From Octopus vulgaris (Eukaryota): a stretch of 64,000 nucleotides of DNA. Under the pieces are notes generated by a model. It worked only from the letters and a program-made list of their open reading frames with translations, had not been told where the DNA came from and did no database searches. The stretch lies in the NCBI GenBank assembly GCA_951406725.2, contig OX597823.1:4402001-4466000 (forward strand), given 5' to 3'. A program made the position numbers and the translations under genes. Below are positions 6,698 to 55,140 of this stretch, piece by piece. Positions within the stretch are counted from its first letter, which is position 1, and every line of letters begins with the position of its first letter.

Positions 6698-6706
6698 GAT
6701 AAATAG
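6698..6706 (+). promoter_or_regulatory. TATA-like element upstream of secreted-protein gene 1
   Basis: GATAAATAG about 55 nt upstream of the ATG at 6761; position only, no functional evidence. Confidence 0.3.
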
Positions 6707-6760: not shown

Positions 6761-6773
6761 ATGAAGTTATTCT
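6761..6773 (+). CDS. Gene 1 coding exon 1 (MKLF + 1 nt), start of signal peptide
   Basis: AGA-ATG AAG TTA TTC T followed by consensus donor GTAAGT (6774). Phase 1 joins exon 2 in frame, giving MKLFLIFLLTSCLVVEKTHG, a typical signal peptide. Confidence 0.7.
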
Positions 6774-7029
6774 GTAAGTAGGTTTTGTTGTTGTTGTTGT
6801 TGTTTAGCTCCCAGCTTGACCCTTCAGTATCTTGGGCAGACCCCAGTTATTTTGCAAGCAATCTAAACCATACTATCTTACCTGAGGGATGACGTCCACC
6901 TATCACAAAAAGGACCCTGAAAAGAATTATGGTGGTTTGTCCTCTACTTTCCATTTAGCCCTGATCAAGCAAACATTGGTTGAGAGACATTCCAGCCATA
7001 TATATATATATATATATATATATACTCTT

Positions 7030-7405
7030 ATTCTTTCTCTTTTACTTGTTTCAGTCATTTGACTGCGGCCATGCTGGAGCACCGCCTATAATCGAGCAAC
7101 TCGACCCCGGGACTTATTCTTTTTGTAAGCCCAGTACTTATTCTATCGGTCTCTTTTCCCGAACCGCTAAGTAACGGGGACATAAACACACCAGCATCGG
7201 TTGTCAAGCGATGTTGGGGGAACAAACACAGACACACACATACATATATACGACAGGCTTCTTTCAGTTTCCGTCTACCAAATCCACTCACACGGCATTG
7301 GTCGGCCCCGAGGCTATAGTAGAAGACATTTGCCCAAGATGCCACGCAGTGGGACTGAACCCGGAACCATGTGGTTGGTTAGCAAGCTACTTACCACACA
7401 GCCAT
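7030..7405 (-). mobile_element. tRNA-derived SINE family 1 (internal (TA/TG)n)
   Basis: A box TGGCTGTGTGG, B box GGTTCAGTCCC, tail gaaacaagtaaaagag; many copies in the window. Confidence 0.85.
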
Positions 7406-8167
7406 ATATATATATATACATATATATGACTTTTGTACATAACCCCATGTGCTCTATATACACCTTTGATGGATTGTAGTGCTCCTGAGCACTGTACACA
7501 GTAATTCCATTATTATTATTATTATTATTATCATGGGGAAGAACAAAGAATATACACCACTTGCTGGCTCTGCACCATTTGGCTTTCAGTTTTCTCCTTT
7601 CACATATTTTCTATATAATCGCCTGCCCCCCACCCCTCTTTTCCTGTGTTTTTCTTTAATCTTTTTGATACAATATTCCTGTTGAAATACACTGACACAA
7701 CTATTAAGCTGGTGTTTGAAACTTCAATTAACATGAAATTTTGATGAAAGGTTCTGATTTAGTTCACATCAGCCCTTTTGTTTCTGATGAAATACACCAA
7801 CTTTGCTTCAATTCATTTTGAAAATTATGAATAAATAAATATAATAACATTGTCATTGAAAAGCATGGAAAAGGATGCTTAAAGTGATGATGATGATGAT
7901 ATATCATGATTTGCTTAGGTATAGTGATGCTACCATTGTTTTTATTTTAAATGGTTTTGAGGAAGCTGTGAGATGTTGTACAAGCAATTAGCTCCGAGTG
8001 CACTGCTTTTTATAGCAGAAACAACTGTGAGCTAATGCAGGTGAATATGTAACACCTGTTCTTTTGTCATCCATTATTTGATGTGCATGTGTGTGTGTGT
8101 GTGTATTACCCAACACATTTTTCTCTCTGTTTTCTCCCTTCTTTCTCCATTTTTTCCCCTCTTGTCC

Positions 8168-8203
8168 CTTTCTGTAGAAGAGCATAGGCTCGAAACATCA
8201 AAG
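8168..8203 (+). ncRNA. Minimal hammerhead ribozyme-like motif in Penelope-type repeat remnant (core variant)
   Basis: CTTT-CTGTAGA-AGAGC-ATAG-GCTC-GAAA-C-ATC-AAAG; core A6 substituted by T. Confidence 0.5.
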
Positions 8204-8409
8204 ACTTTTCCATTTTTCCTGAGTATCAAACTAATACACCTGCCTCTTGTTCCCTCACCTGTCTTTGTCTTCTTAACATTTGAACTATATATATAAAACA
8301 TATAGAGCAACACATAATATAAGAGAGAGAGAGAGACAGAGAGAGAGACAGACAGACAGAGAGACAGACAGACAGAGAGTCAGAGAGAGAGACAGACAGA
8401 CAGAGAGTC

Positions 8410-8440
<31 letters not shown>

Positions 8441-8496
8441 GCAACCAAGTGAAAGAAACACAAAAATGGTGTTATATTATTTTTCTGTTTTTGCAG

Positions 8497-8696
8497 TAAT
8501 TTTCCTCCTGACTAGTTGCTTGGTGGTAGAAAAGACCCATGGTCTACCTGACCTGGCTGGAATCATTGCTGGCCTCAGCGGCAAAACAATTGAGTTGCTG
8601 AAAAAAGTCACAGTACCAATTTTGGATACACAGATTGGTTTCCTGAGAAGCCACATTGAACATCTGGTGTCGTTCTTCAAAGGAAGCGAAGGCGAT
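8497..8696 (+). CDS. Gene 1 coding exon 2 (rest of signal peptide and amphipathic helical N-terminus LPDLAGIIAGLSGKTIELLKKV...FFKGSEGD)
   Basis: Acceptor ttttctgtttttgcag, 200 nt of open non-repetitive frame, donor GTAAGT at 8697 (phase 0). An in-frame ATG at 8466 is an alternative start. Confidence 0.8.
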
Positions 8697-9069
8697 GTAA
8701 GTATTCCCTTACTTTTATGCATTCTAAGGTTAATAAAAGTTCAATCAACAAATGCCAGGGCTATAAATCTGCTCCGCTCATCTTCCTTACCCCTCCTCAT
8801 TTCTACCCCTATGTAGTGCCATCTCCTATCCTCTCTTCTGTTCTCCTTCAGTTGTAGGGGCCACCTCAGGTCCTTAGTCTTTGCGAGGTATAAGGTGATC
8901 ATCAATTAGTACAGGTGCCATGGAAAAAGCATCCAGAACATTCTATAGATTGGTTGGTATAAGGAAGGGCCTCTGGCTGTGGAAACCCTACCAGACGAGA
9001 GAGTGGGGCATGTCTTGATCTTCTGGTTCATCAGATCCTGTCAAATCCTCCAACCTATGCTGGCATGGG

Positions 9070-9370
9070 ATAATTGATGATGAGGATGATGATGGTAGTG
9101 GTGGTGGTGGTGGTGGTGGTGATGGTAGTGGCAGTGGCAGCAGTGGTGGTGGCAGCGGTGGTGGTGAGGGGAGGAGGATGAGGAAGGGGATGAGGAGGAA
9201 GGAGAGGAGAAGGAGGAGAAGAGATGGAGGAAGAAGAGGAAGGTGATGAGAAGGGTGGTGGGGAGGTAGAAAAGGAGGGTGATGAGGAGGAGGAGGAAGA
9301 GGGGAGGGAAGGAGAGGGAAATGAGGAGGAGGAAGAGATGGAAGTGGAGGAAGATGGTGGTGGCAGGAGC
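9070..9370. repeat. Purine-rich (GGT/GAG/GGA)n low-complexity tract
   Basis: Trinucleotide-like runs; explains the poly-S and poly-E ORFs. Confidence 0.9.
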
Positions 9371-10717
9371 TTTAAAGAGGGGTCATGTCTGCGTATGTGT
9401 GTGTGTATGAAGTAATGTAATGGTAAGCTATTGGCAACCCAAGACTTTGATAGAAGTCCCCTTGCTTCTCGTTTCACTCAGTTCATTCCTTATTCTCAGG
9501 GCTACCATCAGAGTCAATAACTAGACCAGCAGAGTTTATAGAAAGATGGATAAATTCCATTGCCACGAAGAGTAGAAAGTCTTACATTTCTGGATCTTAC
9601 AATTCAACAGAAAACAGGAAAATATTTGGCTGTTAAAGCAAGCAGGGGAGATCCAGAGCTTTCTTGACTTTGATCCATAGTTTACAGAGATTAAACTGAC
9701 TGTTTTACAGTGATATCACCTTCCTTCCTTCATGAGCCAAAAGGGGATTAAGGGTCCATCATTCATTTATTCACTCTCTCTTTCATCTTATATTTATCTA
9801 CCTTCCTCACTCTCTCTTTCTCATTCCTTGCTTTTCTTCTTCTTGCTCTCTCCTGCACCCATCTCCCCCCCCTCTCTCTCCCTCTCTCTCTCTCTCTTTG
9901 TTTCTTATTCCTCTTCTTTCTTCCTTTGACTAATCCCTCCAGAAAATATGTAAAAAACCCCTGAAGGGCCACGAATTTGTTCTGGGGTAGTAGATGTAAT
10001 CTTAGTTTGACAAACGCAATAATGTTTTCCATAAGGCAGCAAGAAATGTTAGCATGGAGGGTGAAATGCTTAGGGGTGCTTCTTACATTCTGAGTTCAAA
10101 TTTGCTGGGGTTGAATTTACCTTTCATCCTTTCGAAGTCGATAAATTAAGTACCAGTTGCATACTGGGGTCAATCTAATCGACTGCCCCCCCCCCCCACT
10201 TCCCAAAAATTTTGGGCCTTGTGCCTAGAGTAGAAAAGAATAATGTTTTCCATATTGGTGTGGGTTGAACAGGGACTTATTGAGCCAATGTGTTTATGGC
10301 GGGGTGCTCTTCCTGTCATCAACTCTTGTCTGTTTTTTTCAAGTCAACTTTTGAAAGTGCAGAGTTTCAGGATGTTTTGAGAGTTGTTTACAGGGGGTGA
10401 AAACTTGACAACACTGTTTTCCTCATACAGTGTCATGTTACAATGTTGAATACACACACACACACACACATGACAGGCTTCTTTCAGTTTCCATCTACCA
10501 AATCTACTCACAAGGCTTTGGTTGGCCTGAGGTTATAATAGAAGACACTTGCCCAAGGTGCCATGCAGTGAGACTGAACCCAGAACTACAGGGTTGGGAA
10601 GCAAGCTTCTTAACACACAGCCACCCTTGCCTATACATGTATAAATTTTAATTGTTTCTTATTGTTATAATGGTATTTATGGGGGTAGGGGTTATATAAT
10701 TTGTTATTTTTGTCGTT

Positions 10718-11005
10718 GCACTCTGTCGGTTACGATCCAGTTGATCTGATCAATGGAACAGCCTGCTCGTGAAATTAACGTGTAAGTGGCTGAGAACTCC
10801 ACAGACATGTGTACCCTTAAAGGAGTTCTCGGGGAGATTCAGCATGACACAGAGTGTGACAAGGCTGGCCCTTTTGAAATACAGGTGTTTTCGCTTTTAG
10901 GTGTTTTCGCTCAATAAACACTCACAACGCCCAGTCTTGAAATCAAAACCATGATCCCAAAACCACAAGTCCACTGCCCTAACCACTGGGCTATTGTGCC
11001 TCCAT
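10718..11005 (-). mobile_element. tRNA-derived SINE family 3 (partial)
   Basis: Matches copies at 18443-18762, 21387-21665 and 59140-59520. Confidence 0.75.
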
Positions 11006-11149
11006 TTGGTATTTTATTTAAGGGTTGAGCAAGGAATGAAAAATTATTGTTAAATATTCTTCTATTGATGTTTATTTTGGATTTTGGGTTTAACAGTAAA
11101 ATGTGTTTTTTAAATAGTAAAATCAATGTCTTATTGTATTCCTTACTAG

Positions 11150-11225
11150 ATACCTGTTCCAGAGACCAGTTTTGTTCTTCATTTTGTTGCTGACCGATGC
11201 CACATCATTGGGAAACGTTTCTTGT
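11150..11225 (+). CDS. Gene 1 coding exon 3 (IPVPETSFVLHFVADRCHIIGKRFL + 1 nt)
   Basis: Acceptor tattccttactag, 76 nt, donor GTAAGT at 11226. Phase 0 to 1 bridges exon 2 to all four terminal exons and supplies one Cys, making four in total. Confidence 0.75.
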
Positions 11226-11425
11226 GTAAGTATAAAGCCTGTTTTATTTTTGATATTTCTAATAAACAACATGTCATACAACAGCAAAAGCAACAACAAC
11301 AAAAAAACAAGCTTCACTTACGTCTCACAACAGAGTGGTCAGTTATAAGAAAGGGCACCCAGCTATAAAAGCAGTTGCTACAACAAATGACCAGTGACAC
11401 TCACAGTAACTCAGGCCTAAGAACT

Positions 11426-11599
11426 AACAATGGGAATAAATAAGCATTACATTTTCTTGAGTGATTTGAATGCTTAAAGACTAAAGGTGGTGTGTTAGGC
11501 CTACCATCCTGGTTAGTTCTTAGGCCTAACACGTCCCCCTTTAGTCTTTAAGCATTCAAATCACTCAAGAAAATGTAATGCTTATTTATTCTCATTGTT
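11426..11599. repeat. Near-perfect foldback (arms ~78 bp, short loop)
   Basis: aacaatgggaataaataagcattac...ttaggccta pairs with taggcctaac...gtaatgcttatttattctcattgtt. Confidence 0.9.
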
Positions 11600-13154
11600 T
11601 AGTATGAACGATGCATTGACTTGTAGCTTTGAGATTTCAATGATGGGATTTAGAATGATGTAGGGTAGGTGTGAGAGGACAGATCTGGTCAGTGTTAAAA
11701 TAAAACAGGTAGAATATTTGAGCCAGAAAGGGTCAGTTTAGATGCTAAAGGGTTAAACAGAGCACATTCTCTTGCAAGTATTCAGACCGAACTCTCAGTT
11801 CTCTCCTTGTTCAGAAATTTCCGGTTTCGGTTTTTGGCACCAATCATATCCGTCTCACCAGTCTATGTGGGTGGGCTGTGGAACTACAAAGGTTATGTCA
11901 CTGCCATTCTTTTAGACTTTGGTCCATCACCACCCCTAGGGCTAATAAGACTAGCAGGAACTTAACTTGGTTTCCATGTTGTATAAGTGACTGAGATGCC
12001 AACATTTCCTCTCCCCTGGATGGGATGATGGTCCATCACAGGGTTAACTTCCTATCTATTGCTGGAACTCATTTAAGACTCAGTGAACTGGAAGAGTGAG
12101 AAATGAAGAGTCCTGCACAAAAGTCCAATGTGCTGCTTAGCCTGGGAATTGAAACCACAATCTTATGATTGTGAGTACAACACCCTAACCACTAAACCAT
12201 ACACTTTCACAAGCATGGTGTAAATGTTGCGAATCAAGTTTCCTCATCGTTTCAGCATTCATATTTTCATGCTTGTTTAAGTGAGATGGAATTCACTGAG
12301 GCATGATGTCCATGGCTGGAGGGCATTCCTCTTGCCAGCTCTTACCTGTCTCCAAGCAAAGTAACATTCCTCCATGGCTGAACATGCCTTTCATGGAAAA
12401 TTGGAAACAAATGATACCACTTGTGTGACAGTGATTCTTGTTTACGACTATCATGTGATGTCAAGACAAGAAGACATAAACACTTACACACACACTTACA
12501 CACATGTGTGTGCGTGTGTGCGCAGGCAATGAGCCTCTTTGAATTTTCACATGACTTTTTGATTGGCTTCATGCTATATTAGAAGACACTTGCCCAAGAT
12601 GCCACACAATGGGATTGAACCTGAAGCCTTGAAGCTGGAAACTAAGCTTCATGACCATATAATAGGTTCTTTACAAAACAATATCAGAGTATTTGATACA
12701 AATATTAAATCAAATATGTTAAATGTTTTATTTCATTAATGATAATACCTCATGACAGAGTTTCCTGTTCAAGTATGTTTCCACACCATCATCAGACAAA
12801 TCAATAATTGACCAAACTTGAACTTAAATGTCTGTGACATACATAAATTAGTTTATATTGGGGGGGGGGTTAAATATTACAAGTGTAATTCATATAGTGA
12901 ACAGTGAGTTAATTTACATGGATTGGTTTAAAATAGAATCTTAATCTTCCATGAGAAGTTGATAATTTGAAATAATAAAGGAATCGATGAGTGTATCCTT
13001 ATATAAAATGTGGAGTTCCTAGTAGGGAATAGAGGTATAAAGGGAAGAAATTGTTGAGACTGATATGGTGTTCACAACAAAGAAGGCAAATAGAGACATT
13101 GTGAGTGCTGGTACACAGGTGATTATTAATTTATTCAAGCAGGTGATAGTATAA

Positions 13155-13510
13155 GTTCCGGGTTCAGTCCCACTGCATGGCACCTTGGGCAAGTATCTTC
13201 TACTATAGCCTCGGGCCAACCAAAATCTTGTGAGTGGATTTGGTAGGCAGAAACTGAAAGAAGCCCATCGTGTATATGTATATATGTGTGTGTGTTTGTG
13301 TGTCTGTGTTTGTCCCCCCCCCCCCAACATCACTTGACAACCGATGCTGGTGTGTTTACGTCCCTGTAACTTGGCGGTTCAGCAAAAGAGACCAATAGAA
13401 TAAGTACTAGTCTTACAAAGAATAAGTCCTGGGGGGTCAATTTCCTCGATGAAAGGCAGTGTTCCAACATGGCTGCAGTCAAGTGACTGAAACAAGTAAA
13501 GGGAGAGTAG
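13155..13510 (+). mobile_element. SINE family 1 copy (5'-truncated)
   Basis: gggttcagtcccactgc...gaaacaagtaaa. Confidence 0.85.
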
Positions 13511-26239: not shown

Positions 26240-27206
26240 CACCTGACTGTCGTCTGTGTCAGTGATACATAAAAGCACCATCTGATCGTAGCCGTTTGCC
26301 AGCCTGCTCTGGCTCCTGTGCCGGTGGCATGTAAAAAAAGCACCCACTACACTCACGGAGTGGTTGGCGTTAGGAAGGGCATCCAGCTGTAGAAACACTG
26401 CCAGATCAGACTGGAGCCTGGTGCAGCCTCCTGGCTTCCCAGACCCCAGTCGAACCGTCCAACCTGTGCTAGCATGGAAAACGAACGTTAAACCATGATG
26501 ATGATGATGATGATGATATATACATATATATATATATATAAAAGCACCATCCGTCCGTGTCCGTTGCCAGCCTCGGCTGGCCCCCGTGCCGGTGACACGT
26601 AAAAGCACCGTCCGCTCGTGGCCGTTTGCCAGCTCTGTCTGGCAACCGTGTCGGTGGCACGTAAAAGCACCATCTGTTCGCGTCCGTTGCCAGCCTCGGC
26701 TAGCCCCCGTGCCGGTGACACGTAAAAGCACCATCCGTTCGTGGCCGTTTGCCAGCTCTGTCTGGCCCCGTGTCGGTGGCACGTAAAAGCACCATCCGTC
26801 CGTGTCCGTTGCCAGCCTCGGCTGGCCCCCGTGCCGGTGACACGTAAAAGCACCGTCCGCTCGTGGCCGTTTGCCAGCTCTGTCTGGCAACCGTGTCGGT
26901 GGCACGTAAAAGCACCATCCGTTCGTGTCCGTTGCCAGCATCGCCTGGCCCCGTGCCGGTGACACATAAAAGCACCATCCGTTCGTGGCCGTTCACCAGC
27001 TCTGTCTGGCACCTGTGCAGGTGGCACGTAAAAAACACCCACTACACTCGCGGAGTGGTTGGCGTTAGGAAGGGCATCCAGCCGTAGAAACACTGCCAGA
27101 TCTGACTGGGCCTGACGAAGCCTTCCAGCTTCACAGACCCCAGTTGACCCGTCCAACCCATGCTAGCATGGAAAACGGACGCTAAACGATGATGATGATG
27201 ATGATG
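26240..27206 (+). mobile_element. Two tandem RTE 3' UTR fragments; the second has eight ~61-bp tandem units (26540-27030)
   Basis: AAAAGCACC recurs every 60-62 nt; both fragments end in (GAT)n. Confidence 0.85.
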
Positions 27207-27237
<31 letters not shown>

Positions 27238-29109
27238 CATGCACATACACATACACTCACAACATTCAGCTCTGAAAACCTTAAATTGATTCCCCTTTTT
27301 GCCTGGAGCCATTTCAACTGCCTTCTTTTATCAAGTTTTGCTTTCTCCAGACATTGCACTTGTTACATACACAGACTTTCCACCAGTTTTATCATTGTGC
27401 ACTTTATTATTTTTGCCTCTGCCTTAGCGAAGGCAGAGGTATTGTTTTTAGTTGCATTTGTTTGTTTGTCCATGGACAAAATATCTCAAGAACCACTGGA
27501 TAGATTCAGATGAAACTTTCAGGGATGTTTCGCCTCGTGGCTGGCACAAACTGATTAGATTTGGGGATCGATCTGGTGCTGGACAAGGATTCTGGATTAT
27601 TTTTCCGTTTTTTTTTTTACTTAATTTCTGAGAGTGGTTGGGTTCATTATTAGTATTCTCGTTTGTGAGAGCAGTTGAGTTTATTTCAGATATTCTCATT
27701 TTAAAAATCTTCTCCGGCTGATCGTTGAGAAGATGTTGGTGTTGCCTTGGCAGAGGTCTGCTCGCTCTGAGTGCTCTTGTTTCTATTATTGCACTTTTGC
27801 ATTGGTGCTTCTTCCCAAATACCACAATTCTTCTTAGCTTCACCTTCTCCTCACACTTGCATCCGTTACCTTCTCACCCCCCCCCCACCTTCCTTGTACA
27901 TAAAATACAATTACACGTACATACCATCCTCCCATCTCACCACGCTCCCATACTTGCACACACCCCCATACCCTCACACACCTACACACCTCTCTCTAAG
28001 CTCATCTCTACACATGGATATACTCCTACATAGGCACACATCACCCTACTCCCTCCTTCTTAAACCCACCCCACCCCATAGAATTGCCTCCCCATTACCT
28101 CTCATTCTCATCTTTTGTTTTTCCTTTCCCATCTCTCTTCCAGCATCCATCAAAACATTCAGACTCTTTTCTTTCTTTGTAAGCATTAAAGTAATTCATT
28201 TATTAAAACTTGTTTCCCACCCCAACTCCATGCTGTCTTCTTTCTGTATTCATTGTTCTCCTATACATACATACATACATACATACATACATACATACAT
28301 ACATACATACATACATACATACATACATACATACATGTGTGTGTATAATACAAATAATATACAAATATATGCATAATATACATACATATATGTACATACC
28401 TACATATACATGCATATATGGGTACAGGACATCAAAAAAATGTTGAACACAATGAGGAACGAAAACATAAAAACAAAAACATAGAAACAAACCTTTTTTC
28501 GAACAACGAAAAAAACAAACAGAGAAACGAGTCATACAACATAAAGAATATTCCCCTTCTTCGTAGTTGTCCCTGTTTCATCTACTCCACGTGACGAAGG
28601 CAAGGACAAGATGCAACTTCATTGAAACAGTCCTTCTCGCAAAGCAAATTAAATAAAATTTGGGATTTTTTGCAGAGGATGAAACGGGTAACAAGAACAG
28701 GACAATGGGAACAAAACAGTAAAAACAGTAAAAGACGGGACAATGGGAACAAAAAAGTAAAAACAAACGATGAGGGCCGTTAAGCCAAGATGATGGAAAA
28801 ATTATTCTGAACGTTTAAGGAGACGAGCTTATGAAGAGACAGTATAAGCCCATTTAGTCTTTGCAAAGGTACCTTCACAAAGTTATTTCCATTTCCATGA
28901 CTGTTAAATTCTTAGCGTTTTCTTCTATTTCAGTTCTTTTTTTATTCAGTTTGACGTTATTCTTATTCTGAATATTTACTTTCCCAATCTTATTAGAATA
29001 GCTTTTATTGAAATTTTGATATTTTTTCGTAATGAGCTGCTGTTATTTGGGCAATGGTTCTACTGTTAGAATAAACCATATGGATCTTGTGTTTGTTTTA
29101 ACTACAAAG

Positions 29110-29183
<74 letters not shown>

Positions 29184-29324
29184 TCTGTGTGCGTATACAT
29201 ACATACATACATACATACATGCATGCATAAACACACACACATACATATATGTTTCAAAATGTAACTGCATGTGCATCAATGGCGATTTTCTTCCTCCGTC
29301 TTCCCTTCCTTTGGACTTTCCTCT

Positions 29325-29360
29325 ATTTCTGAAGAAGAGCATTGGCTCGAAACATTAAAT
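29325..29360 (+). ncRNA. Minimal hammerhead ribozyme-like motif in Penelope-type repeat remnant
   Basis: ATTT-CTGAAGA-AGAGC-ATTG-GCTC-GAAA-C-ATT-AAAT. Confidence 0.55.
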
Positions 29361-29602
29361 TCTCTTTCCTTCCTTTCCTGAGCATCTGATAATACGTCCT
29401 CGTGTTATTGCTTTTTCTTGTTTGTTCTTTTTTGTTTGCATTCACTATATCATCATTCATTTAGCGTCCGTTTTCCATGCTAGCATGGGTTGGACGATAT
29501 ATATATATGTGTGTATATATAAATATATGTATGTATGTATATATGTATTACATACTTACATATATATATATGTGTGTGTATACATGTATGTATGTATATT
29601 AT

Positions 29603-29633
<31 letters not shown>

Positions 29634-29711
29634 TATGTATAGTGTACATTTCCAGAATGGTAAGGTTAACGTGTAAAGTATTCCACCTGGTGAGAGATAA
29701 TAAACACAATA

Positions 29712-29960
29712 TATGTTTTTATGTGCTACTGTTAGTTTCATGTGATGAAAGTATGCCAGAAAGTGTTATTGAATATGTCTGGTGCACTAGTGCACTCTTC
29801 AGGCACTGCCCACAGAGCATAACAAGCCAAAAATAGGACAATAGGATGAGAGAGAAACAAGAAAGAAGATATATAAAAGGTGGAAGACACCAGGTGTGTT
29901 AAAAATACTGTCTGGCATGCTTTCATCACCTGAAACTAAATAGTAGCACATAAAAACATA
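29712..29960. repeat. Inverted-repeat (MITE-like) element
   Basis: tatgtttttatgtgctact...tgatgaaagtatgccaga pairs with tctggcatgctttcatca...agtagcacataaaaacata. Confidence 0.75.
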
Positions 29961-29974
29961 ATATAAATATACAC

Positions 29975-30862
29975 ACACTGGTTGTGGTGACTATATTGTC
30001 GTCTAAGTGAAGCAAAAATGAAAATAACACTCACAACTCATTTTAAAAGATATATTTACCAAAATTACATAAAAATATCTTGAAATACTAAAGAGTAAAT
30101 TTATTCAATAAAATCGCCATTGGCTTCAACCACGGCTTCCAGATGACTTCGGAATCTCCTGCAACTCTTCTGGATAGTCTCCTTGTTTAAGTTGGTGAAT
30201 GCTGCCATAATCCTTACCTTCAGTTCATCTTTGGTGTTACAAGGAGTTTTGTTAGTCTCTTGCTCCACTGTGCCCCCACACATAATAATGAAGGAGTTAC
30301 AGTCTGAGGAGTTAGGTGGCCAGATGTTAAGGGTGATGTGGTTGCAGAAATTGTCTGACTGCCATAACTGGGTTCTCCTGCTTGTGTGGGATGGTGTAGA
30401 GCCCTGTTGCCAGACATAGGGTCTTCGAGCAGCCACTCTCTTGACCCAGGGCAGTACTACCTCCTCCAGGTACTTGATGTAGGCATGTGTGTTCAGTCTG
30501 AGGCAGTGTGGGAAGATGAATGGAGGCATAATGTTGGCACCACTAGTGATCACACTAAACACCATGATGTTGACTGGATGTTTGATTTTTATCACTGTTG
30601 GTACATGTTTTGGGAACATGGCAAGTCAACAGTTGTTCTGTGTGTGTTTACCTTTGTTCATAGTGGAGCTTCCAGCATGAATGTCAAGCAATACAGCATG
30701 TCATTTGCAAATTTCTGGCAGAGTGAATTGCAGCATGACACTGTTTTTCTCACAGACAGTGCCCAACTGACCCTACTATACTGTGTAGTCAACAAAATAA
30801 AAAGCAAACAATGTGCATGTGCGAAATTAAGAATATAAAATGGTGACAATTTACCCATTGTG
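29975..30862 (-). mobile_element. Internally deleted Tc1/mariner transposon, DD37D (maT)-like transposase pseudogene (30101-30619)
   Basis: KHPVNIMVF, YVWQQGSTPSH (degenerate QQDxAPxH), WPPNSSDCN, CRRFRSHLEAVVEANGDFIE. Catalytic Asp lost. Confidence 0.85.
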
Positions 30863-30923
30863 TGTGTGTGTGTGTGTGTCTGTGTCTGTGTCTGTGTCTC
30901 TGTGTGTGTGTGTGTGTGTGTGT

Positions 30924-31001
<78 letters not shown>

Positions 31002-31231
31002 CATTGTTTTAACATCCTCTTTCCCATGCTTGCACGGGTGAGATGCAAATCTCTGAAGCAGACCTTTTATCCAAAATTACTAAGGGACACACACATACAC
31101 TTTCACATCACTCATCACACATTGCTCTCCTCTGCCAACACTCTCTCCAAAAACAAGCGATACATGAATGTTGGCTAAATTATAAAGCATGAAGCAAGGA
31201 AATGACCTGACCCTTTTTACTCTCTTCCTAG

Positions 31232-31410
31232 TTGTTTGGCCAGCCCAATGTAAGGCTACAGCTACTGAGAAAAAGACTGGACTGAGTGCGACTTGTGAGA
31301 GGCTGAACCCTAAACTAGCCATCGAATGCGCAGTATTGAAGGCAGCCAACTTGATGAAGAGAGTTGCAGAAAAACTGGATGAAACAACATCAGATTCAAG
31401 AAGATTTTGA
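31232..31410 (+). CDS. Gene 1 terminal exon B ((F)VWPAQCKATATEKKTGLSATCERLNPKLAIECAVLKAANLMKRVAEKLDETTSDSRRF*)
   Basis: ctgac branch-point-like motif, acceptor ctttttactctcttcctag, phase 1, same Cys motif and same 17-nt offset to the first Cys codon, TGA stop. Confidence 0.82.
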
Positions 31411-31580
31411 CTTTTCCAATGGGCTAACAAATAGGAATATATAATTTACATACACAGATACGTACGTACATACATATATACATCCATCCAACCATATATA
31501 TATATATGTGTGCTTTATAGATGTGAAACCCAGGATAATTCCATAGACCAGCCTTATCTGTCTTTATATATATATATATG

Positions 31581-31626
<46 letters not shown>

Positions 31627-31633
31627 TATATAC

Positions 31634-31693
<60 letters not shown>

Positions 31694-31765
31694 ATGTGAC
31701 CTCGTGTGTACCGTTGGCGATTTTTTTCCTCCGTCTTCCCTTCTCTGGATCTTTCCTTCTCCTAT

Positions 31766-31800
31766 GTTTCTGACAAAGAGCTCCGCTCGAAACGTTAAAC
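31766..31800 (+). ncRNA. Minimal hammerhead ribozyme-like motif (core G8>A, probably inactive)
   Basis: GTTT-CTGACAA-AGAGC-TCC-GCTC-GAAA-C-GTT-AAAC. Confidence 0.5.
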
Positions 31801-31909
31801 CCTCCTTCTTTCCTTCTTTCCTTCCTTCCTGAGTGTCCAATAATACTATATTTGTTCCACGTCCTCGCGTTGTTGTGTTTTCTCTTTGTGTTTTTATGTT
31901 TGGATTAAC

Positions 31910-31968
<59 letters not shown>

Positions 31969-32018
31969 ATGTAGTGATACATTAAATGTTTATAACTTCC
32001 ATCCTAGGATTATTTTTG

Positions 32019-32100
<82 letters not shown>

Positions 32101-33774
32101 TTATATACACATATATATAAGTGCATGTGTGTGTGTATCTGTGTGTAGATATATAAAATGCACTCATATATATGTACCTATACATGTTCATGTATGTATA
32201 CATGTTTGTATGAATGCATACATGTATGTACATACACACACACACCAGCATATCTATATAAAATCATACACAAGTAATTTTGAGTGCCAGTAATTCACTG
32301 AATGCACACATACAGACACCTCTATCTCTCTCTATGTATATATATACACATACACACACACACACATATTTAAGATACAGAAATAGTTTATTCTCAAATG
32401 CATGATAATGCTGATACAATAGCCTGAACAGGATAAACTATCCATATATTATAGGAAAAATCGTTACCAGCCAGCCATGAGACTTGAACTCACATCGCTG
32501 TGATCACGCGTAATAAACTTTAGTTGAAAAGTCTTTGGCCAGTGATTTTAGTATTTCTAGATTAAGTCAGTTCTATTTCCTGATTCCATGTGTGTCAGGG
32601 TTTCTATCTGTGTCTTGGGCAGTTGTGGTTTGCTGATTGACAGAGTTCTGGGGTATGGAGGAAAAGAGAATAGGATGCTGTGGAATTTGTGTGTTCTCCA
32701 ACAATATCAGGGTGGGGGAAACCTTTAGAACATTGAAAGAAAGAAAGAAAGAAGGAAGAGAGAAAGAAAGAAAAAAGAAAGAAAGAGAGAGAGAGAGAGA
32801 AAGAAAGAAAGAGAGAGAGAGAAAGAAAGAAAGAAAAGCGGTGGTTGTGACATTTATGCATTTCCCAGGAATATTTGTGCAGTATTTGAAGTCAGTCCAT
32901 TTAAGTTTGCAATCTCCCTCATACATTTCATTTATCAACAATCCAGCTCTGTACTAATATTAACCATCCACAGGCAAAGGTTTTCATAGTAAAAAAAAAT
33001 CCCTTTTTTTTTAAAATGTAAAATTGGAGTCATTCCTTTGACTCCAATTTCCTTATAAAAACAGAAACAATTTCTTAAACCAAAAAAAATGTTAAAATAG
33101 GTGCCATCATACTTTTATGGTTTTCATTGGAAATTAGTTTTGATGAGAATAGTTTTTGGATAATTCTTAACCCTTTTGATACCAACCCACTTGAGCCCAC
33201 CCTTGGGGTCTATGATACAAACTTTCAGTTTTAAAGTGATCTAAAATGAAACTTTCAGTTTTAAAGTGATCTAAAATGAAACTTTCCATTAAAATTTAAA
33301 GTTAATTTATGTCCTAAACATGAGTTTAATAATGACAAAGTTATATTAATAAATTCTCCATTATTTTTAAACTTAATTAAAACAGCAGCAGTGTATTTCA
33401 ACAGGAATATGGTGTCGAAAGAGTTAAGTTTTGCTTCGAAAACGTCTACCAATTGGTAATTGGATACATTTATGGATATAGTAATGGAATCAACAACCTT
33501 CAAAACCAATCAGTGACCAATGACAGAAATTCTAGGAAGAATAGCAGAAAGTTTTCAGAGAAGCCTCACCCTATCCCAAGCCAGTGTTTTGGCCCTTGGC
33601 TCCTTATATACTTAGGAGGGTCAGGCTGAATCCAGATTATGACTTCCAGATGCTCCTCTTCTGCCGCATTCTATGCTACTATCTGAACTGCAACCTGCGC
33701 CTTTCTGGTTGGTCAAGCTGCCCCAGAGCTAAAATACCTTGGATGTTATAACCTCTTCTGACGCTCACTTTCAT

Positions 33775-34180
33775 TCCTTCTTGACCAAATCCAGATGCAA
33801 CTGCACCCAGAATCTTCTGCCATGGCCTTAATGGCTCTGGTTCTCTTTCAACCAGAAAATTAGAACCATTTCATGAGATAATTGGCAGATTAGCCTACAG
33901 ACCTTCTCACTCCCATCCATATGGCAAAGACTTTGGTCTGGAAGCCTGATTTTCTCAGCATTATGACATTTTTCAGTCTTGTAGATATGGTTTCCTCCAT
34001 TCCGCTTTCATGTGGCACAATTTCTGATTGAATTTATTCCACCAGAATTACTTGTTTTGATGAAAGTGAGTAAAATACAATGTCCAGTCTCACTGAGTTG
34101 GTTTGTAGAAGGTTTCAGCTGTGGACTCATGCAACTTGGCTGTCTTGATAGTCTTCCCATCTTTCAGAGCAAAACTGGGT
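33775..34180 (-). mobile_element. Degenerate HERO/R2-superfamily non-LTR element, C-terminal endonuclease
   Basis: Reverse frames read RLDIVFYSLSSKQVILVE..VPHESGMEE..GFQTKVFAI..IKAMAEDSGCSCIWIWSRR. Confidence 0.6.
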
Positions 34181-34788
34181 TTGTAGCAGAGAGAAAGGTG
34201 ACTTCATGCCAGGTGTTGAGAGAGTAAAACATGACAGAGGAGCAGGTACAGGTGTCTTGCTATGGAGGAGATCGATGACAACAGCATATTACATAAGGTT
34301 TGGGTGCAGGTTGCTGGAAAGATGATTAAATATGTTGGTAACGCAGAATCCAGGCAAACATTCAAGGTACAAGAAGTTGAACAGGAGAAAGGCTGAAGGC
34401 AGGGTGTTTGGAGGGGGGTGGGTAGTGATGTCAGAAACATGTGGGAGTGGAGCAATGGATGGTTAGAGGTGGGGGTAGAGGTGAATGTAGCGAACGGTCA
34501 TCAAGAATATTTTAATATTCTCTAGAATGAAATATTAAATCAAGACAACTTACTAACATGTTTTTACAGAGACCATTGTTAAGGTTAAGGCCTGAGTCAG
34601 CTCTGATTGAGTTGATCTTTGAGGGCAGAGGTTCCCTACGTGACCATTTCTTCTTTTCATCTCTGCATATAATATATTTAAGCCCACATTCTCAAATAGC
34701 CAACAATGTCCTTCCTACTTTGAATCGTTAGAACTATGATTTCTATGGCCTTCTCTAATCCCATGTAACATGTTTGCGTCTGTTTCAG

Positions 34789-34949
34789 TGCGAAGCTTCC
34801 TGAAATGTAAGGCCACAGTCACTGAGAAACAGACTGGTCTTGCTGGTACTTGTCAGAAGCATTATCAAAAGGAAGCGATTCAGTGTGCAATGGCAAAAAC
34901 TGTCAAACTCCTTCGGGAACTCATAAAGAAAATCGATGCAGGCGCTTAA
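34789..34949 (+). CDS. Gene 1 terminal exon C ((L)RSFLKCKATVTEKQTGLAGTCQKHYQKEAIQCAMAKTVKLLRELIKKIDAGA*)
   Basis: Not in the ORF track; read manually. Acceptor tctgtttcag, branch-like ctctaat, phase 1, same motif, TAA stop. Confidence 0.85.
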
Positions 34950-35085
34950 AACACACACACACACAAGATATTAATATATAATATATAATTATATACATAT
35001 AATCATATATAACCATATATATATATATACATATATAAACTATCTTTTATCCTTCTCTCCCTCTTTCTCTTGGTCTCTCTTACAT

Positions 35086-35162
<77 letters not shown>

Positions 35163-35353
35163 GTGTATATTAATTACTGGTGAAGGCTGGCTTCTAATGT
35201 TATAGTAATTAATATAGACTGCTCTACTTTGTAAGAGTGGGTTTCTCCCCATTTATGTTTTTCTAAAAAAACAATTATATATATATATATATATAAATGT
35301 AAGATCCAGGGACCAAGGTGTAGGTGTGTGTATATATATGTATATATATGCGT

Positions 35354-35406
<53 letters not shown>

Positions 35407-35471
35407 CACACTCACAGATTCTTTTGCCTTGTTCAACTGAAGATGTCTTAATAAAATAATGATTTTAATAG

Positions 35472-35477
35472 AATAAA
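35472..35477 (+). terminator. Candidate polyadenylation signal of terminal exon C
   Basis: AATAAA in context tagaataaaa, conserved in the homologous 3' flank of exon D. Confidence 0.5.
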
Positions 35478-35676
35478 ATTGATTTTATCTAAAATCCATA
35501 ATCTTATAAAATTGTTGTTCATGGTGTTCTGATGACTTCAGAAATCTTTCACAAAATCAGACGAGTAAAGTTTAAGCTGTGTCAACGCATGCAACATGGT
35601 TAACGGGATTTTCTTCACAACATCATTCAGGCCAGAATTCTGTTTTGTTGGTTATTGGTAGGGAACTTTAAGGATC

Positions 35677-36031
35677 CCATTGCACCCATCTAACACCCGT
35701 GGACATATTTACAAAGTCAGAAAACAGCACAGCTCCCATGACTTTAGGAAACATTTTTTCACGCTAAGTGTTGCTGAAATATGGAACAAACTGCCGGCAT
35801 CAGTTGTTAGTTGTCGGAGCACTGCATCCTTCAAAACTTCCATGCTTCCTGAGATTCGCCAACACTACACCTGATTTTCTCCCCTCCATACACACGCAAG
35901 CATGTATCTGACTCATACATTGTTCTCTTTCCAGACATTTTTACATTACTGCATATACTCTATATGCACTTTCTGACAAGTTGTGGTGCACCTGAGCACT
36001 GTATACAATAATTTCATTATTATTACTATTA
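35677..36031 (+). mobile_element. CR1/L2-clade LINE 3' end with 10-bp target-site duplication
   Basis: TRGHIYKV..RKHFFTLSVAEIWNKLPASVV..SFK, (ATT)n tail, TTTAAGGATC at 35667-35676 and 36032-36041. Confidence 0.88.
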
Positions 36032-36272
36032 TTTAAGGATCAAACAAAACTGCATTCTTACTTTTCCCATTTTGAACACACAAACATTATTCTCAAATTA
36101 TTTGTTCAGGCTCTTTACATTTTGAGATCAAATCCCACCAAGGTCATCTTTGCCTTTCATTTCTCTAGGTTGACAAAGTACCAGTTAAATACTGGGGTTG
36201 ATGTAATCAGTTCATCTCCTCCCTTCAAAAATTGCTGTTTTTCTGCCAAAATCAGAAAAAAATTGTTAGTAT

Positions 36273-36450
36273 AGGCACAGGAGTGGCTGTGTAGTAAATA
36301 GCTTGCTTACCAACCACAGGGTTCTGCGTTCAGTCCCACTGTGTGGCACCTTGACAAGTGCCTTCTACTATAGCCTCAGGTTGACCAAAGCCTTGTGAGT
36401 GGATTTGGTAGACGGAAACTGAAAGAAGCCTATTGTATATATATGTGTAT

Positions 36451-36483
<33 letters not shown>

Positions 36484-37165
36484 CATATCAATCAAATCAA
36501 ATCAAACCAAATCAAAATAGATGAACATCAATGGAATTTGTATCCTTGTGGTACCAGTGCCGGTGGCACATAAGAAAACCATCTGAACGTGACCGTAGCC
36601 AGTACCGCATCGACTGGCCTCCGTGCTGAGGGCACGTAACAAACACCATCCGAGCGTGGCCGTTCGCCAGCCTCGTCTGGCACCTGTGTCGGTGGCACAT
36701 AAAAACACTATCCGAGCGTGGCCGTCTGCCAGCCTCGTCTGGCACCTGTGTCGGTGGCACATAAAATCACCCACTACACTATCGGAGTGGTTGGCGTTAG
36801 GAAGGGCATCCAGCTGTAGAAACACTGCCAGATCTGACTGGCCTGGTGCAGCCTTCGAGCTTGCCAGACCCCAGTTGAACCGTCCAACCCATGCTAGCAT
36901 GGAAAGCGGACGTTAAACGATGATGATGATGATATATATATATATATACATAAGTTTGTATATGATTGTGTGTCTGTGTTTGTCCCCTCAACATCGCTTG
37001 ACAACTGATGCTGGTGTGTTTATGTCCCAGTAACTTAGCAGTTCAGCAAAAGAGACCGTTAGAATAAGTACTAGGCTTGCAAAGAATAAGTCCTGGTGTT
37101 GATTTGCTCAACTAAAGGCATGGCAGCAGTCAAATGACTGAAACAAATAAAAGAATAAAAGGATT
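36273..37165 (+). mobile_element. SINE family 1 copy split by a nested RTE 3' UTR fragment (36500-36930)
   Basis: SINE halves flank an RTE tail inserted in the internal microsatellite. Confidence 0.8.
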
Positions 37166-38194
37166 ATTTTTTTAAAAAGGCACCAATCTGGCAGAATTGC
37201 TGAGGTGTTGGACAAGTCACTTAGCAATATTTCTCCAGGCTCTTTACATTCGGAGGTCAAATTCCGCCCAGGACAACTTTGCCTTTCATCTTATCACAGT
37301 CAATAAAATAAGTATCAGTTGAGCACTGGGGTGTGTGTAATCAACTTAGCCCCTCCCCTTCAAATTGCTGGCTGGACTCACACCAAAAAGTGAAACAACA
37401 ATTTTTAGAATAGGTACTGATGATCTCTAAAAAGAATGAAATAGTGCCACACATGATTACCACAGACTGGAAATTTTAAGAAGTCCATTTTAAGTAAAAA
37501 AAGAAAAAATGAAATACCTGAATTCTTTGCATCTTCTTTCTTAAATTTCCTTAATTTCAATTTCAATTTTCTAATCCGGTTCTGAACCATAATCTAATGA
37601 TTATCTCCTGTGTAATAGCTGTTACTACTAGAGGGACCACGTGAATTATACCAGGCATGGGTAGCTTTTTTTTTCAAGAAGTGAGCAGCATGAGGCATGA
37701 ATCGCCATCAGGTGGGCCATACTACTAAGAAAATTCAAGGTAACTTTCATTGAAGGTGCACTTCAGAGAAACCTGTAGGTTGTAGATTGTCCTGACTGAG
37801 TTAGACAATCAGTTTTACAATACCTGCCAGGAGTGGAGATTCTTAACCTTGATTTTCTAAAAATCATTCCATAACTGCCAAGAATGCACAGATACAAACA
37901 CCACCTGAAATATTAGTGATTCAATGTAGAAATATTAAAAAACCCAAAGTATATTTCAACTAAGGTGATACAGAGATGGATACAGGTGTACACACTCACA
38001 CCCAAATTTAGTGTGCGTGATTATATGTATGTTTGTGCATATTCTTATATGCAGATATGTGTGTGTGTGTGTGTGTGTGAAAGAGAGGGGGAGAGAGGGA
38101 GAGGGTTGTATTTAAATGTGTGGGGGGTGGAGATTGTTTTGGATGCTGTGTGACAGTTGAAAACTTGTTTTTCAAAGGTCATTATACCAATAAT

Positions 38195-38244
<50 letters not shown>

Positions 38245-38956
38245 TTCTATTTCATTTTTATTATTATTAGTCAACTGATTAACCATTCAATCAATCATTT
38301 GATTAACTGTTTGGTCAATCAATCAATCAGCTAGGTCTTTTGTCACCATTTGCTGCCTCATCAATGACGTGCTTTCTCTACTCCAGGTTGCTAATGGTAA
38401 CAACAGGACTCGGATAGAACAAGCTGTTTGATTGGTTGACCTAACAATTAATCAAAAAATCAATTAGTTAATTAGTTAAATGGTCAACTAGATGAATAAT
38501 AACAATAAAATAAGTGAAATAGAGCCAGTGCATGTGTTTATTATTGGCATTAGGACCCTCCCAAGATACAACAAAATCTGTTTCAACAGATGATCTCACA
38601 TCAAGAATTTTGGGAACCAAATACAAAAATGAATCAAAATCTTTGTGAATAATAAACATACACTCCTTAAAGAGGTGCCATTCCACAAGAGATAGATAGA
38701 AAAATGGTTTGTATTTCATCATTGGATTTGGTGCTGCTTTTCTATCTCGAAATGGTGTAACACATCATATTGAAAATCTCTTCAGATAATTATTTCAAAA
38801 TTTAATCATTTTAAATCATGTGTGAATGAACGTATGGTGTTATGTAAGTTTTTACTTAAATAAAGCCGTTTGTTTCCATTTTGACTTTTACAATCCTGGT
38901 GTTGCAATGCTTATAGTTTTTCTCTAATTGCAAATATATATTTACATCTGTTTCAG

Positions 38957-39117
38957 TAACTGATTTCAAGAAATGTAAGGCTACTGTGAAAGAAGCACAA
39001 ACCGGTCTCAGTGCTACATGTGAGAAACATTATCAAAAGGAATCAATTGAATGTGCGGCCAAAGAAGTTATTGATCTTCTGCAGGCATTAGTAAAGAAAG
39101 TTCAATCAAGTGCCTAA
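38957..39117 (+). CDS. Gene 1 terminal exon D ((L)TDFKKCKATVKEAQTGLSATCEKHYQKESIECAAKEVIDLLQALVKKVQSSA*)
   Basis: Not in the ORF track; read manually. Acceptor tctgtttcag identical to exon C, phase 1, 30/53 aa identical to exon C by manual count, TAA stop. Confidence 0.85.
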
Positions 39118-39497
39118 TACACATATATATATATATATACACACACTATATTTTTGAGTTGACAAGGCTACCAGTTGTTTCATGCACTGAGAAATCTCTT
39201 GAGTATTATCAAGTCTGCCACATGGGAACGTTGGTAATCATCTCTGAATGAGAATACATGAAGATGTAACAGGCTTGATAAATGTTGAGAGATTTCTCTC
39301 TACATGAAACCATTGGTAGCCTCATTAACCCACAAATAAAGAATATTTATCCAACAATGCAGAGTTGAACACACATTCTTACTGGTTCAATATTAGCAAC
39401 TATATATATATACACACACATACATACATACATACATATATATACACACACACTCAATTTATTTGACTAATGTTTTAATAAGGCAATGATTTCCTAG

Positions 39498-39503
39498 AAT
39501 AAA
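39498..39503 (+). terminator. Candidate polyadenylation signal of terminal exon D
   Basis: AATAAA at the position homologous to that of exon C, followed by U/GU-rich sequence. Confidence 0.5.
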
Positions 39504-51559: not shown

Positions 51560-51973
51560 TTTACTCTTTTACTCTTTTACTTGTTTCAGTCATTTGACTG
51601 CGGCCATGCTGGAGCACCGCCTTTAGTCGAGCAAATCGACCCCGGGACTTATTCTTTTGTAAGCCCAGTACTTATTCTATCGGTCTCTTTTGCCGAACCA
51701 CTAAGTGACGGGGACATAAACACACCAGCATCGGTTGTCAAGCAATGCTAAGGGTACAAACACAGACACACAAACATACATGTACATGCATATATATATA
51801 TATATATACGACGGGCTTCTTTCAGTTTCCGTCTACCAAATCCACTCACAATGCTTTGGTCAGCCCGAGGCTATAGTAGAAGACATTTGCCCAAGGTGCC
51901 ACGCAGTGGGACTGAACCCAGAACCATGTGGTTGGTTAGCAAGCTACTTACCACACAGCCACTCCTGCGCCTA
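51560..51973 (-). mobile_element. SINE family 1, full length
   Basis: Reverse complement of the 44595-44985 family. Confidence 0.9.
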
Positions 51974-51979
51974 TTAATG

Positions 51980-52619
51980 CATTTTTTTTATTTTCGAATA
52001 AGTAACTCTTTAAAAGAGTCAATGATTTTTTTATGACCATTTTTTCCTAAATTATTTTATTTGAAGCATTGCAATAAAAAAAGTAAGTATGCTGTTTCCC
52101 AATTGGAATCCATTTTAAAACAAAAAGTATAAAAGTTTTTAGGACTTTTTTCTTCTAAATCGGTCAATAGCATAAAAATAAAACCAAACATGTTTATCAT
52201 GTTGCTTAAATGAACGTTTTTACAACTGTTTTTCTTCTAAAATAGTTATTTTGATGGAGCATTAACAACAAATATATTTCTTTATCTTGCCAGAAAAAAA
52301 TACCTCTTTTAACTGTAAATGTTTTCAAGATCATATTTTCTCTTCAGAATATCAATTGTCATATAACAAAAAGTAATAAATGCATCATATTTCTCAAATA
52401 AAATCCGTTTCAAATCCGTAATTAAATATCAGAAGAATGTTAATTCCTGGAGCACCACCTTTAGTCAAACGAATTGACCCCCAGGACTTATTCTTTGTAA
52501 GTGAATTACTTATTCTATAGGACTCCTTTGCTGAACCGCTAAGTTACGGGGACATAAACACACCTGCACCGGTTGTCAAGTGATGGTGGGGTGACAAACA
52601 CAGACACACAAACATATAC

Positions 52620-52651
<32 letters not shown>

Positions 52652-52757
52652 TGCCAGATCTGACTGGCCTGGTGCAGCCTTCGGGCTCCCCAGACCCCAG
52701 TTGAACCGTCCAACCCATGCTAGCATGGAAAGCGGACGTTAAATGATGATGATGATG

Positions 52758-52791
<34 letters not shown>

Positions 52792-54907: not shown

Positions 54908-55140
54908 AAGCGGCGAGCTGGCAGAAATGTTAACACGCCGGGCGAAATGCGTAGCCGTATTTCGTCTGCCATTACATTCTGAGTTCAAATTCTACCGAGG
55001 TCAACTTTGCCTTTCATCCTTTTGGGGTCGATAAATTAAGTACCAGTTACACACTGGGGTCGATATAATCAACTTAATCCGTTTGTCTGTGCTTGTTTGT
55101 CCCCTCTGTGTTTAGCCCCTTGTGGATAGTAAAGAAATAT
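54908..55140 (+). mobile_element. SINE family 2, near full length, with long target-site duplication
   Basis: tatatataggtctaacaaa(a)gc occurs on both sides (about 54890-54911 and 55140-55160). Confidence 0.85.

Follow-up and report, generated by a model that had tools for sequence, protein, structure and literature searches.

A gene for a small, predicted secreted octopus protein with one constant part and four homologous last exons

The stretch of DNA analysed here (the window) comprises 64,000 nucleotides (nt) of Octopus vulgaris assembly GCA_951406725.2, contig OX597823.1, positions 4,402,001 to 4,466,000, and contains a gene in which three constant exons are followed by four homologous last exons, here called cassettes A to D. 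The constant exons (6761-6773, 8497-8696, and 11150-11225) have GT/AG ends and join to 289 nt, or 96 codons plus one nucleotide, ending in phase 1. An initial description made from the letters of the window (the sequence-only reading) had proposed this three-exon part with canonical splice sites, followed by four homologous exons with 17 nt ahead of the first Cys codon and a stop of their own, and we confirmed all of these coordinates, the cassettes beginning at 19528, 31232, 34789, and 38957. The AG of each cassette acceptor is preceded by 12-16 pyrimidines in 17 positions, and the cassettes lie 11.5, 3.4, and 4.0 kilobases (kb) apart. The gap-free motif CKAxxxExxTxLxxTCx5KxxIxCAx6L is present in all four, and the spacing C-X14-C-X14-C-X10-C in products of 149-155 residues, given in that reading for every junction, also held: the mature cysteines of all four products follow C88-X14-C103-X14-C118-X10-C129, and the products are 150, 155, 149, and 149 residues long. 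Tandem homologous terminal coding exons of equal phase, each with a stop, are the defining feature of duplicated alternative last exons, and this is what the locus contains. Its features are as follows.

6700..6705, + strand: putative TATA-like box read from the sequence, about 60 nt before the start codon
6761..6773, + strand: coding exon 1 with a phase-1 donor; contains the start codon and, as predicted, the first 4 signal-peptide codons
8497..8696, + strand: constant exon 2, running from phase 1 to phase 0; encodes the remainder of the predicted signal peptide and the helical N-terminal region
11150..11225, + strand: constant exon 3, encoding Cys88 and Gly-Lys-Arg; phase-1 donor common to all four cassettes
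11210..11218, + strand: Gly-Lys-Arg codons, lying two codons ahead of the splice junction; may be a convertase/amidation site or the basic tip of a loop
19528..19691, + strand: last exon A, coding part; 150-residue isoform, RefSeq X1 of O. sinensis, orthologue X1 of O. bimaculoides
31232..31410, + strand: last exon B, coding part; 155-residue isoform, joined to exon 3 in one contig
34789..34949, + strand: last exon C, coding part; 149-residue isoform, RefSeq X3 of O. sinensis, orthologue X2 of O. bimaculoides
38957..39117, + strand: last exon D, coding part; 149-residue isoform, RefSeq X2 of O. sinensis with 1 difference

The end coordinate of the sequence-only reading, 39503, is the last base of the AATAAA at 39498 that follows D. 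We also observed an in-frame ATG within intron 1 (window 8466-8496), which gives the alternative 156-residue N-terminus of the O. vulgaris model CAI9728594.

Three of the four forms are already annotated in related species. Isoforms X1, X3, and X2 of the RefSeq gene LOC115215941 (O. sinensis) differ from the A, C, and D splices of the window at 0, 0, and 1 positions, respectively, and isoforms X1 and X2 of LOC106883259 (O. bimaculoides) differ from the A and C splices at 6 and 7. The N-terminus of the window gene is identical to that of three RefSeq proteins, the RefSeq C and D proteins have an identical constant part, and an Argonauta protein carries the constant part with a C/D-like end. The RefSeq isoforms of this gene are predicted models labelled 'uncharacterized'; predicted isoforms in RefSeq are usually backed by aligned RNA. 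The homologue searches found no annotated protein with the B form, and for this cassette the evidence comes from a search of sequencing runs with region 31030-31440. Here run X7 yielded a contig of 346 nt at a word depth of 364, in which the match begins exactly at 31232 with the intron absent, and the 9 letters ahead of 31232 are those with which exon 3 ends. Counting both strands, the window contains this terminal 9-mer a single time; among 54 upstream GT[AG]AG donors one matches it at 6 or more of the 9 positions. The B exon was found in one of the four runs examined; X1 and X2 gave nothing, blanks that prove nothing, and X11 gave only 56 intron letters. Among runs sharing words with 8400-11300 none is recorded as RNA, and the 17 that are guessed to be RNA, in which 0.08-0.28 of the words of this region occur, are not counted as evidence. 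Taken together, we consider it very likely that all four exons are used in this gene layout. The X7 contig also shows an A-to-G difference at window 31354, changing Met to Val in cassette B, which may reflect species, allele or editing.

The cassettes could belong to one gene or to a row of tandem genes, and the exons upstream of them distinguish these arrangements. A tblastn search and a profile scan of the window found no other exon 2 or exon 3, in agreement with the earlier statement, made by eye, that no second copy of the upstream exons lies between the cassettes. In the genome, exon 2 and exon 3 each gave one match from one candidate, in both cases only itself. None of the 71 phase-1 donors between A and D ends an exon-3-like candidate (best 0.2 bits), and of 130 candidates only the true exon 3 carries the Cys..Gly-Lys-Arg pattern. 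Two weak exon-3 profile matches in the window (13.5 and 10.6 bits) were rejected, being on the minus strand and short. As a positive control, an exon-3 profile not trained on four paralogues on C4 gave their exon 3 scores of 15.5-33.3 bits, and a last-exon profile gave the untrained C4 exons 33.5-39.6 bits, compared to at most 10.7 in 5 shuffled windows. The sequence-only reading had named as its alternative an ordinary tandem family in which B to D splice to separate upstream exons; near B, C or D neither an exon 2 nor an exon 3 was found. Its proposal of one gene with four alternative last exons is thus borne out by the RefSeq A, C, and D isoforms, the B contig, and the lack of private upstream exons for B to D. 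As to its term 'mutually exclusive', the cassettes are strictly alternative last exons with alternative poly(A), not mutually exclusive internal exons, in the terms used in the available text of PMC8373072.

The genome carries at least five paralogues beyond this gene, or at least six loci in all. One of them (G000:C10:23208384-23212714) agrees with this gene in its exon phases and in the 17 nt ahead of Cys, and the 80 kb scanned contained only one last exon for it; exon 1 of this paralogue was not located. Its C-terminus is acidic to neutral and its basic motif reads Gly-Arg-Lys-Arg. Each of the four C4 paralogues has its own exon 3 approximately 2.4-3.6 kb upstream of its last exon, and exon 2 of these four was not found. 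Because the paralogues keep one last exon, we infer that the ancestral gene had a single last exon and that only this exon was multiplied here. The C4 paralogues form two pairs, at 63.82-63.86 Mb (+) and 129.62-129.66 Mb (-), with members roughly 26 kb from each other, and may reflect a segmental duplication; in the copy at 63.825 Mb, possibly a pseudogene, the exon-3 donor reads CT instead of GT.

We then asked how old the cassettes are and what selection has acted on them. In mutual tblastn searches of the window they match one another at E 1e-6 to 1e-18, and the best non-cassette match has E 0.36. Searching the 2.8-Gb genome with cassette C gave 4 matches among 8 candidates, all four at this locus. 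The closest pair, C and D, is identical at 29 of 52 residues, or at the previously noted 30 of 53 when the junction codon is counted, and the remaining pairs at 17-23 of 52-53. Synonymous divergence (dS) is saturated in 4 of the 6 pairs; for the other two, B-C and C-D, dS is 1.70 and 1.42 with non-synonymous divergence (dN) of 0.53 and 0.36. Over all pairs dN ranges from 0.36 to 0.74, and third codon positions are the least conserved in 6/6. Between species, 2 of 76 residues differ in the mature constant part, 3 of 54 in A and 4 of 53 in C. With dN well below dS and A and C nearly unchanged between species, selection on these sequences is purifying and not diversifying, and the cassettes are an old, stable set rather than a hypervariable repertoire. 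The suggestion that all four are under selection is thereby upheld in its purifying form, with dN/dS computed and four frames open. The description of a constant/variable diversification system holds for the one constant 5' part and the four last exons; diversification was overstated, as the gene has four stable forms. A tree of 11 cassette-type rows, in which the four C4 paralogue exons were not included, has no branch reaching 95/80 support and so does not fix the order of duplication. The Argonauta cassette is identical to D at 29/44, to C at 27/44 and to A at 20/44 residues, and there is only a hint that the split between A and C/D is older than the Argonauta lineage. A cassette-like exon in a Logan contig, with intron-derived N-terminal residues, is identical to A and to B at 25/44 residues and is probably from another cephalopod.

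For the protein, Pfam, NCBIfam, and PDB sequence searches gave no match beyond noise, and the ESM Atlas gave no usable match. Homologue searches returned 4, 4, and 5 proteins, and in a search of representative proteins 2 of 5 matches were real, the other 3 being dropped as repetitive proteins. Squid, bivalve, and gastropod members did not turn up in the homologue searches, although with a word index this counts for little. The single distant homologue is LOC135463155 (XP_064596543) of the chiton Liolophura sinensis, with 35% identity over 91 residues; it consists of a propeptide and three 127-residue repeats (identical at 124-126 of 127 positions) with Lys-Arg between the repeats, before Gln. 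This model may represent a true polyprotein or merged tandem genes. A TSP1 match in the chiton sequence (a 24-residue stretch, 28.5 bits when the three repeats are added together) was set aside as a repeat artefact. Literature searches by gene and protein identifiers and by topic, which did not extend to the supplementary tables of octopus transcriptome and proteome studies, found no paper on this gene. From hydropathy the protein is predicted to have a signal peptide and to be secreted. The cassette makes up a third of the ~150-residue protein and supplies three of the four mature cysteines; the mature net charge (K+R-D-E) runs from 0 in A to +7 in C, the most basic form, and the C-terminal helix is amphipathic, with a hydrophobic moment of 0.44-0.57. 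In all eight genes compared (this gene, five paralogues, Argonauta, and chiton) exon 3, or the part corresponding to it, closes with Gly-(Arg)-Lys-Arg, at a distance of 3 to 5 residues from the Cys; no other dibasic site is shared by all forms. A Gly-Lys-Arg after a signal peptide is a mark of convertase-processed, amidated precursors, and the signal-like hydrophobic N-terminus together with the conserved Gly-Lys-Arg gives this protein the sequence features of that type.

To see how one cassette might be chosen over another, we looked at candidate poly(A) signals and at inverted repeats around the cassettes, which are the following.

19343..19464, + strand: upstream arm of an inverted repeat bracketing cassette A, 122 nt, 91% identity
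20173..20293, + strand: downstream arm of this repeat; its end lies 11 nt ahead of the first ATTAAA that follows A
20304 (ATTAAA, after A), 31981 (ATTAAA) and 32512 (AATAAA, both after B), 35450 (AATAAA, after C), + strand: first candidate poly(A) signals
39335..39503, + strand: two AATAAA hexamers that follow D, at 39335 and 39498, as candidate poly(A) signals

Duplicated 3' coding exons chosen through alternative poly(A) are described in the portion of PMC8373072 available to us, including human genes that carry at least three such ends. PMC6191721, as far as its available text goes, describes docking/selector pairing in PGRP-LC, CG42235, and pipe, and states that scanning and the arrangement of splice sites can suffice. 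We regard competition between acceptor and poly(A) site as, on balance, the likely switch among the octopus cassettes. The arms of the inverted repeat enclose the acceptor and coding part of A, pair at 113 of 122 bases in a predicted fold, and are the only two copies found in the genome; the repeat may help to skip cassette A. It is one of 3 close inverted pairs in the window, the others (51560-53044 and 53329-55162, ~250 nt, 82-84% identity) being likely repeat copies. An outer pair of arms around A (18440-18762 / 21386-21666) was rejected as special, being a common repeat with 5277 candidates. Of the five longest inverted repeats in each of the regions around B, C, and D, none is of this kind, and no docking/selector element common to the four cassette flanks was found by a search that short pairings would escape. 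An antisense match to intron 3 exists for A only, inside a 17-copy repeat, and none for B, C or D. Elsewhere the window holds GC-rich 61-67-nt tandem arrays of one interspersed repeat family (26539-27033, 14990-15170, and 36631-36771), and decayed frames on the minus strand (30101-30625, 25295-25696, and 56830-58261) that resemble a Tc1/mariner transposase and reverse-transcriptase elements.

Two structural models of the protein, both weak, agree on an order of helices at the N-terminus, four strands, and one helix at the C-terminus. The second has residues 101-140 at a predicted local distance difference test score (pLDDT) of 71-77, and residues 89-100 form an uncertain loop with pLDDT <50; we take the models to suggest a loop between Cys88 and Cys103. 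Fold searches gave no significant match for either model. With the second model, the shrimp anti-lipopolysaccharide factor (ALF) 2JOB came 4th in Foldseek (E 0.18, prob 0.60) and 12th in VIA-align (Z 5.1, root-mean-square deviation 4.2, 83/102 aligned), in the latter within 1 Z of the best match. The likeness to ALF had been guessed from the sequence pattern ahead of the fold searches, and this guess is no test of it. ALF has three helices on a four-stranded sheet and a single-disulfide hairpin of 20 residues, compared to four mature Cys here and a 14-residue loop, of pLDDT <50, with Lys-Arg and hydrophobic residues; by sequence the protein does not fall within the ALF family. Nor does it appear to be a double-stranded RNA-binding domain (dsRBD) protein, having no dsrm Pfam match and a signal-like hydrophobic N-terminus. 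An ALF-like secreted defence function is the most likely role, although a tentative one with less than an even chance of being right.

The explanation that we prefer is as follows. Three constant exons precede four last exons that arose by tandem duplication, one of which would be spliced into each transcript. The last exon alone would have been duplicated long ago, and purifying selection has kept all four copies. At each cassette the acceptor and poly(A) site would compete with read-through to the next, and a hairpin formed by the inverted repeat around A could help to skip A. The junction would lie inside the predicted Cys88-Cys103 loop, two codons after Gly-Lys-Arg, and because it falls there the choice of cassette would swap half of that loop, along with two strands and the C-terminal amphipathic helix, changing the net charge from 0 to +7. 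A constant scaffold would then carry four binding faces, and the four forms might bind different surfaces in an ALF-like defence. As a whole we consider this explanation quite probable, the ALF-like role being its least certain part.

A number of points speak against it. The B join consists of 9 letters in one contig from one of four runs; run X7 is only guessed to be RNA and carries an organism label that differs from most of the matching runs, and the A, C, and D junctions come from RefSeq predictions, not reads. The poly(A) sites are candidates read from hexamers. The mismatches of the inverted repeat show no strand bias (3 G-U, 3 A-C, 4 other), so that its part in skipping A is no more than a lead. 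The structural models have a mean pLDDT of 45.6 and 53.7, dsRBD-type and related chains lead the matches of both (Z up to 6.6 and 5.9), and ALF falls outside the top 50 with the first. The ALF profile PF11630 has no match at E≤1 or 5 (its best in the genome, E 6.5, lies elsewhere), the profiles of the octopus family do not find 2JOB at E≤10, and form A has a net charge of 0.

The strongest alternative concerns the product. The protein might be a prohormone- or pheromone-like precursor, cut at Gly-Lys-Arg to give an amidated constant chain and a Cys88-Cys103-bonded variable chain; exon choice would then swap one whole chain of a two-chain signal, which is compatible with a defence role. The retention of Gly-(Arg)-Lys-Arg in 8/8 genes despite its varying distance from Cys speaks for cleavage, as does its position in the low-confidence loop 89-100, and the chiton protein has a propeptide and Lys-Arg-separated repeats, and therefore the family likely meets convertases. 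Cuttlefish pheromone precursors follow the same logic (PMC3484142, in its available part), however by eye the peptides given there are unlike this protein and no homology was seen. The models, in contrast, put the strands of exon 3 and of the cassette in one sheet of one domain, and Gly and basic residues would also fit the tip of a loop. Overall we rate processing into two chains as slightly less likely than the ALF-like defence role.

Another role as the product of a gland (in saliva, mucus or the egg case), in which the amphipathic helices would act on membranes, would also suit a small, predicted secreted, Cys-bonded protein of an expanded family with a C-terminal helix of this moment. However, the protein matches no known family or solved sequence, and there is a close-looking homologue in a chiton, so that we rate such a role as unlikely. 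Distinctly improbable, in our estimate, is the full combination of these ideas, in which an undescribed mollusc ALF-like family was multiplied three ways, through copies of the whole gene and through alternative last exons in octopus and as a cleavable polyprotein in the chiton, and gives a two-chain, disulfide-linked effector, its variable chain swapped whole by splicing and a hairpin looping out the first cassette.

Returning to the four last exons of the preferred explanation, it could be argued that only A, or A, C, and D, are real and that the others are pseudo-exons or prediction artefacts: no annotated protein found contains B, which also did not turn up in three of the four runs, O. 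vulgaris protein records carry the A form only, and D has Ser where the other cassettes and the O. sinensis D have Ala. Against this, B is spliced at depth 364 in one run, four open frames with intact acceptors persist despite saturated synonymous sites, and C is kept in O. bimaculoides; we therefore regard pseudo-exons as very improbable. A tandem gene family, with diverged upstream exons for each of B, C, and D, could draw on the spacing between cassettes and on the four C4 paralogues, which are built so, but is largely refuted and scarcely credible given that there is no + strand exon 2 or 3 homologue between the cassettes, that the letters ahead of B in the contig are those of exon 3, and that the RefSeq C and D proteins share their constant part.

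The layout of the gene is of a known kind. As in the tandem-exon-duplication C-terminal substitutions described in the accessible text of PMC8373072, the last exons are tandem, homologous, old, and conserved, with one per transcript; in the octopus, however, the swap affects a third of a 150-residue, single-domain secreted protein of no known family. The sequence-only reading had likened the locus to Drosophila PGRP-LC and pipe. With these genes and CG42235, as described in the part of PMC6191721 at hand, it shares constant 5' exons, tandem 3' cassettes, and a choice tied to 3'-end formation; this much of the comparison stands, whereas the docking-site/selector pairing that they use has no counterpart found among the octopus flanks. 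The octopus cassettes also differ in being single exons, and the likeness is one of architecture, with no sequence relation expected. At the level of the protein, ALF (PF11630, 2JOB; PMC10672452, available portion) is likewise a small secreted alpha/beta protein with a hydrophobic N-terminal region, a four-stranded sheet and helices, which for the octopus protein are predicted, and with basic and hydrophobic residues between two Cys, and there are the weak fold matches. The two differ in that the octopus protein has four mature Cys in place of two, 14 loop residues in place of 20 (Cys31-Cys52), and one long predicted C-terminal helix in place of two, with no profile match. The same source, in the part available, lists ALFs only from arthropods. 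The alpha-beta-beta-beta-alpha fold of the dsRBD gave the top structural matches of both models (Z 5.9-6.6); unlike a dsRBD, the octopus protein is predicted to be secreted and disulfide-bonded, and a Z below 8 may reflect a merely common arrangement. The chiton LOC135463155 has the four Cys and the Gly-Lys-Arg of the octopus protein, but there the whole domain is multiplied, as three Lys-Arg-separated repeats and not as alternative last exons.

Compared to these systems, the A, C, and D isoforms are already in RefSeq, and the B isoform, the protein family and its three routes of multiplication appear to be undescribed within the literature searched. What this gene adds is a fourth isoform and a family of at least six loci in the genome, with relatives in Argonauta and chiton and no Pfam entry, together with two leads, a possible remote link to ALF and a conserved cleavage motif at the border of constant and variable parts. 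If the defence reading is true, cephalopods would gain a named effector family, and last-exon duplication a four-way model of how one ligand-binding domain is retuned, for which the paralogues with a single last exon provide a built-in ancestral control.

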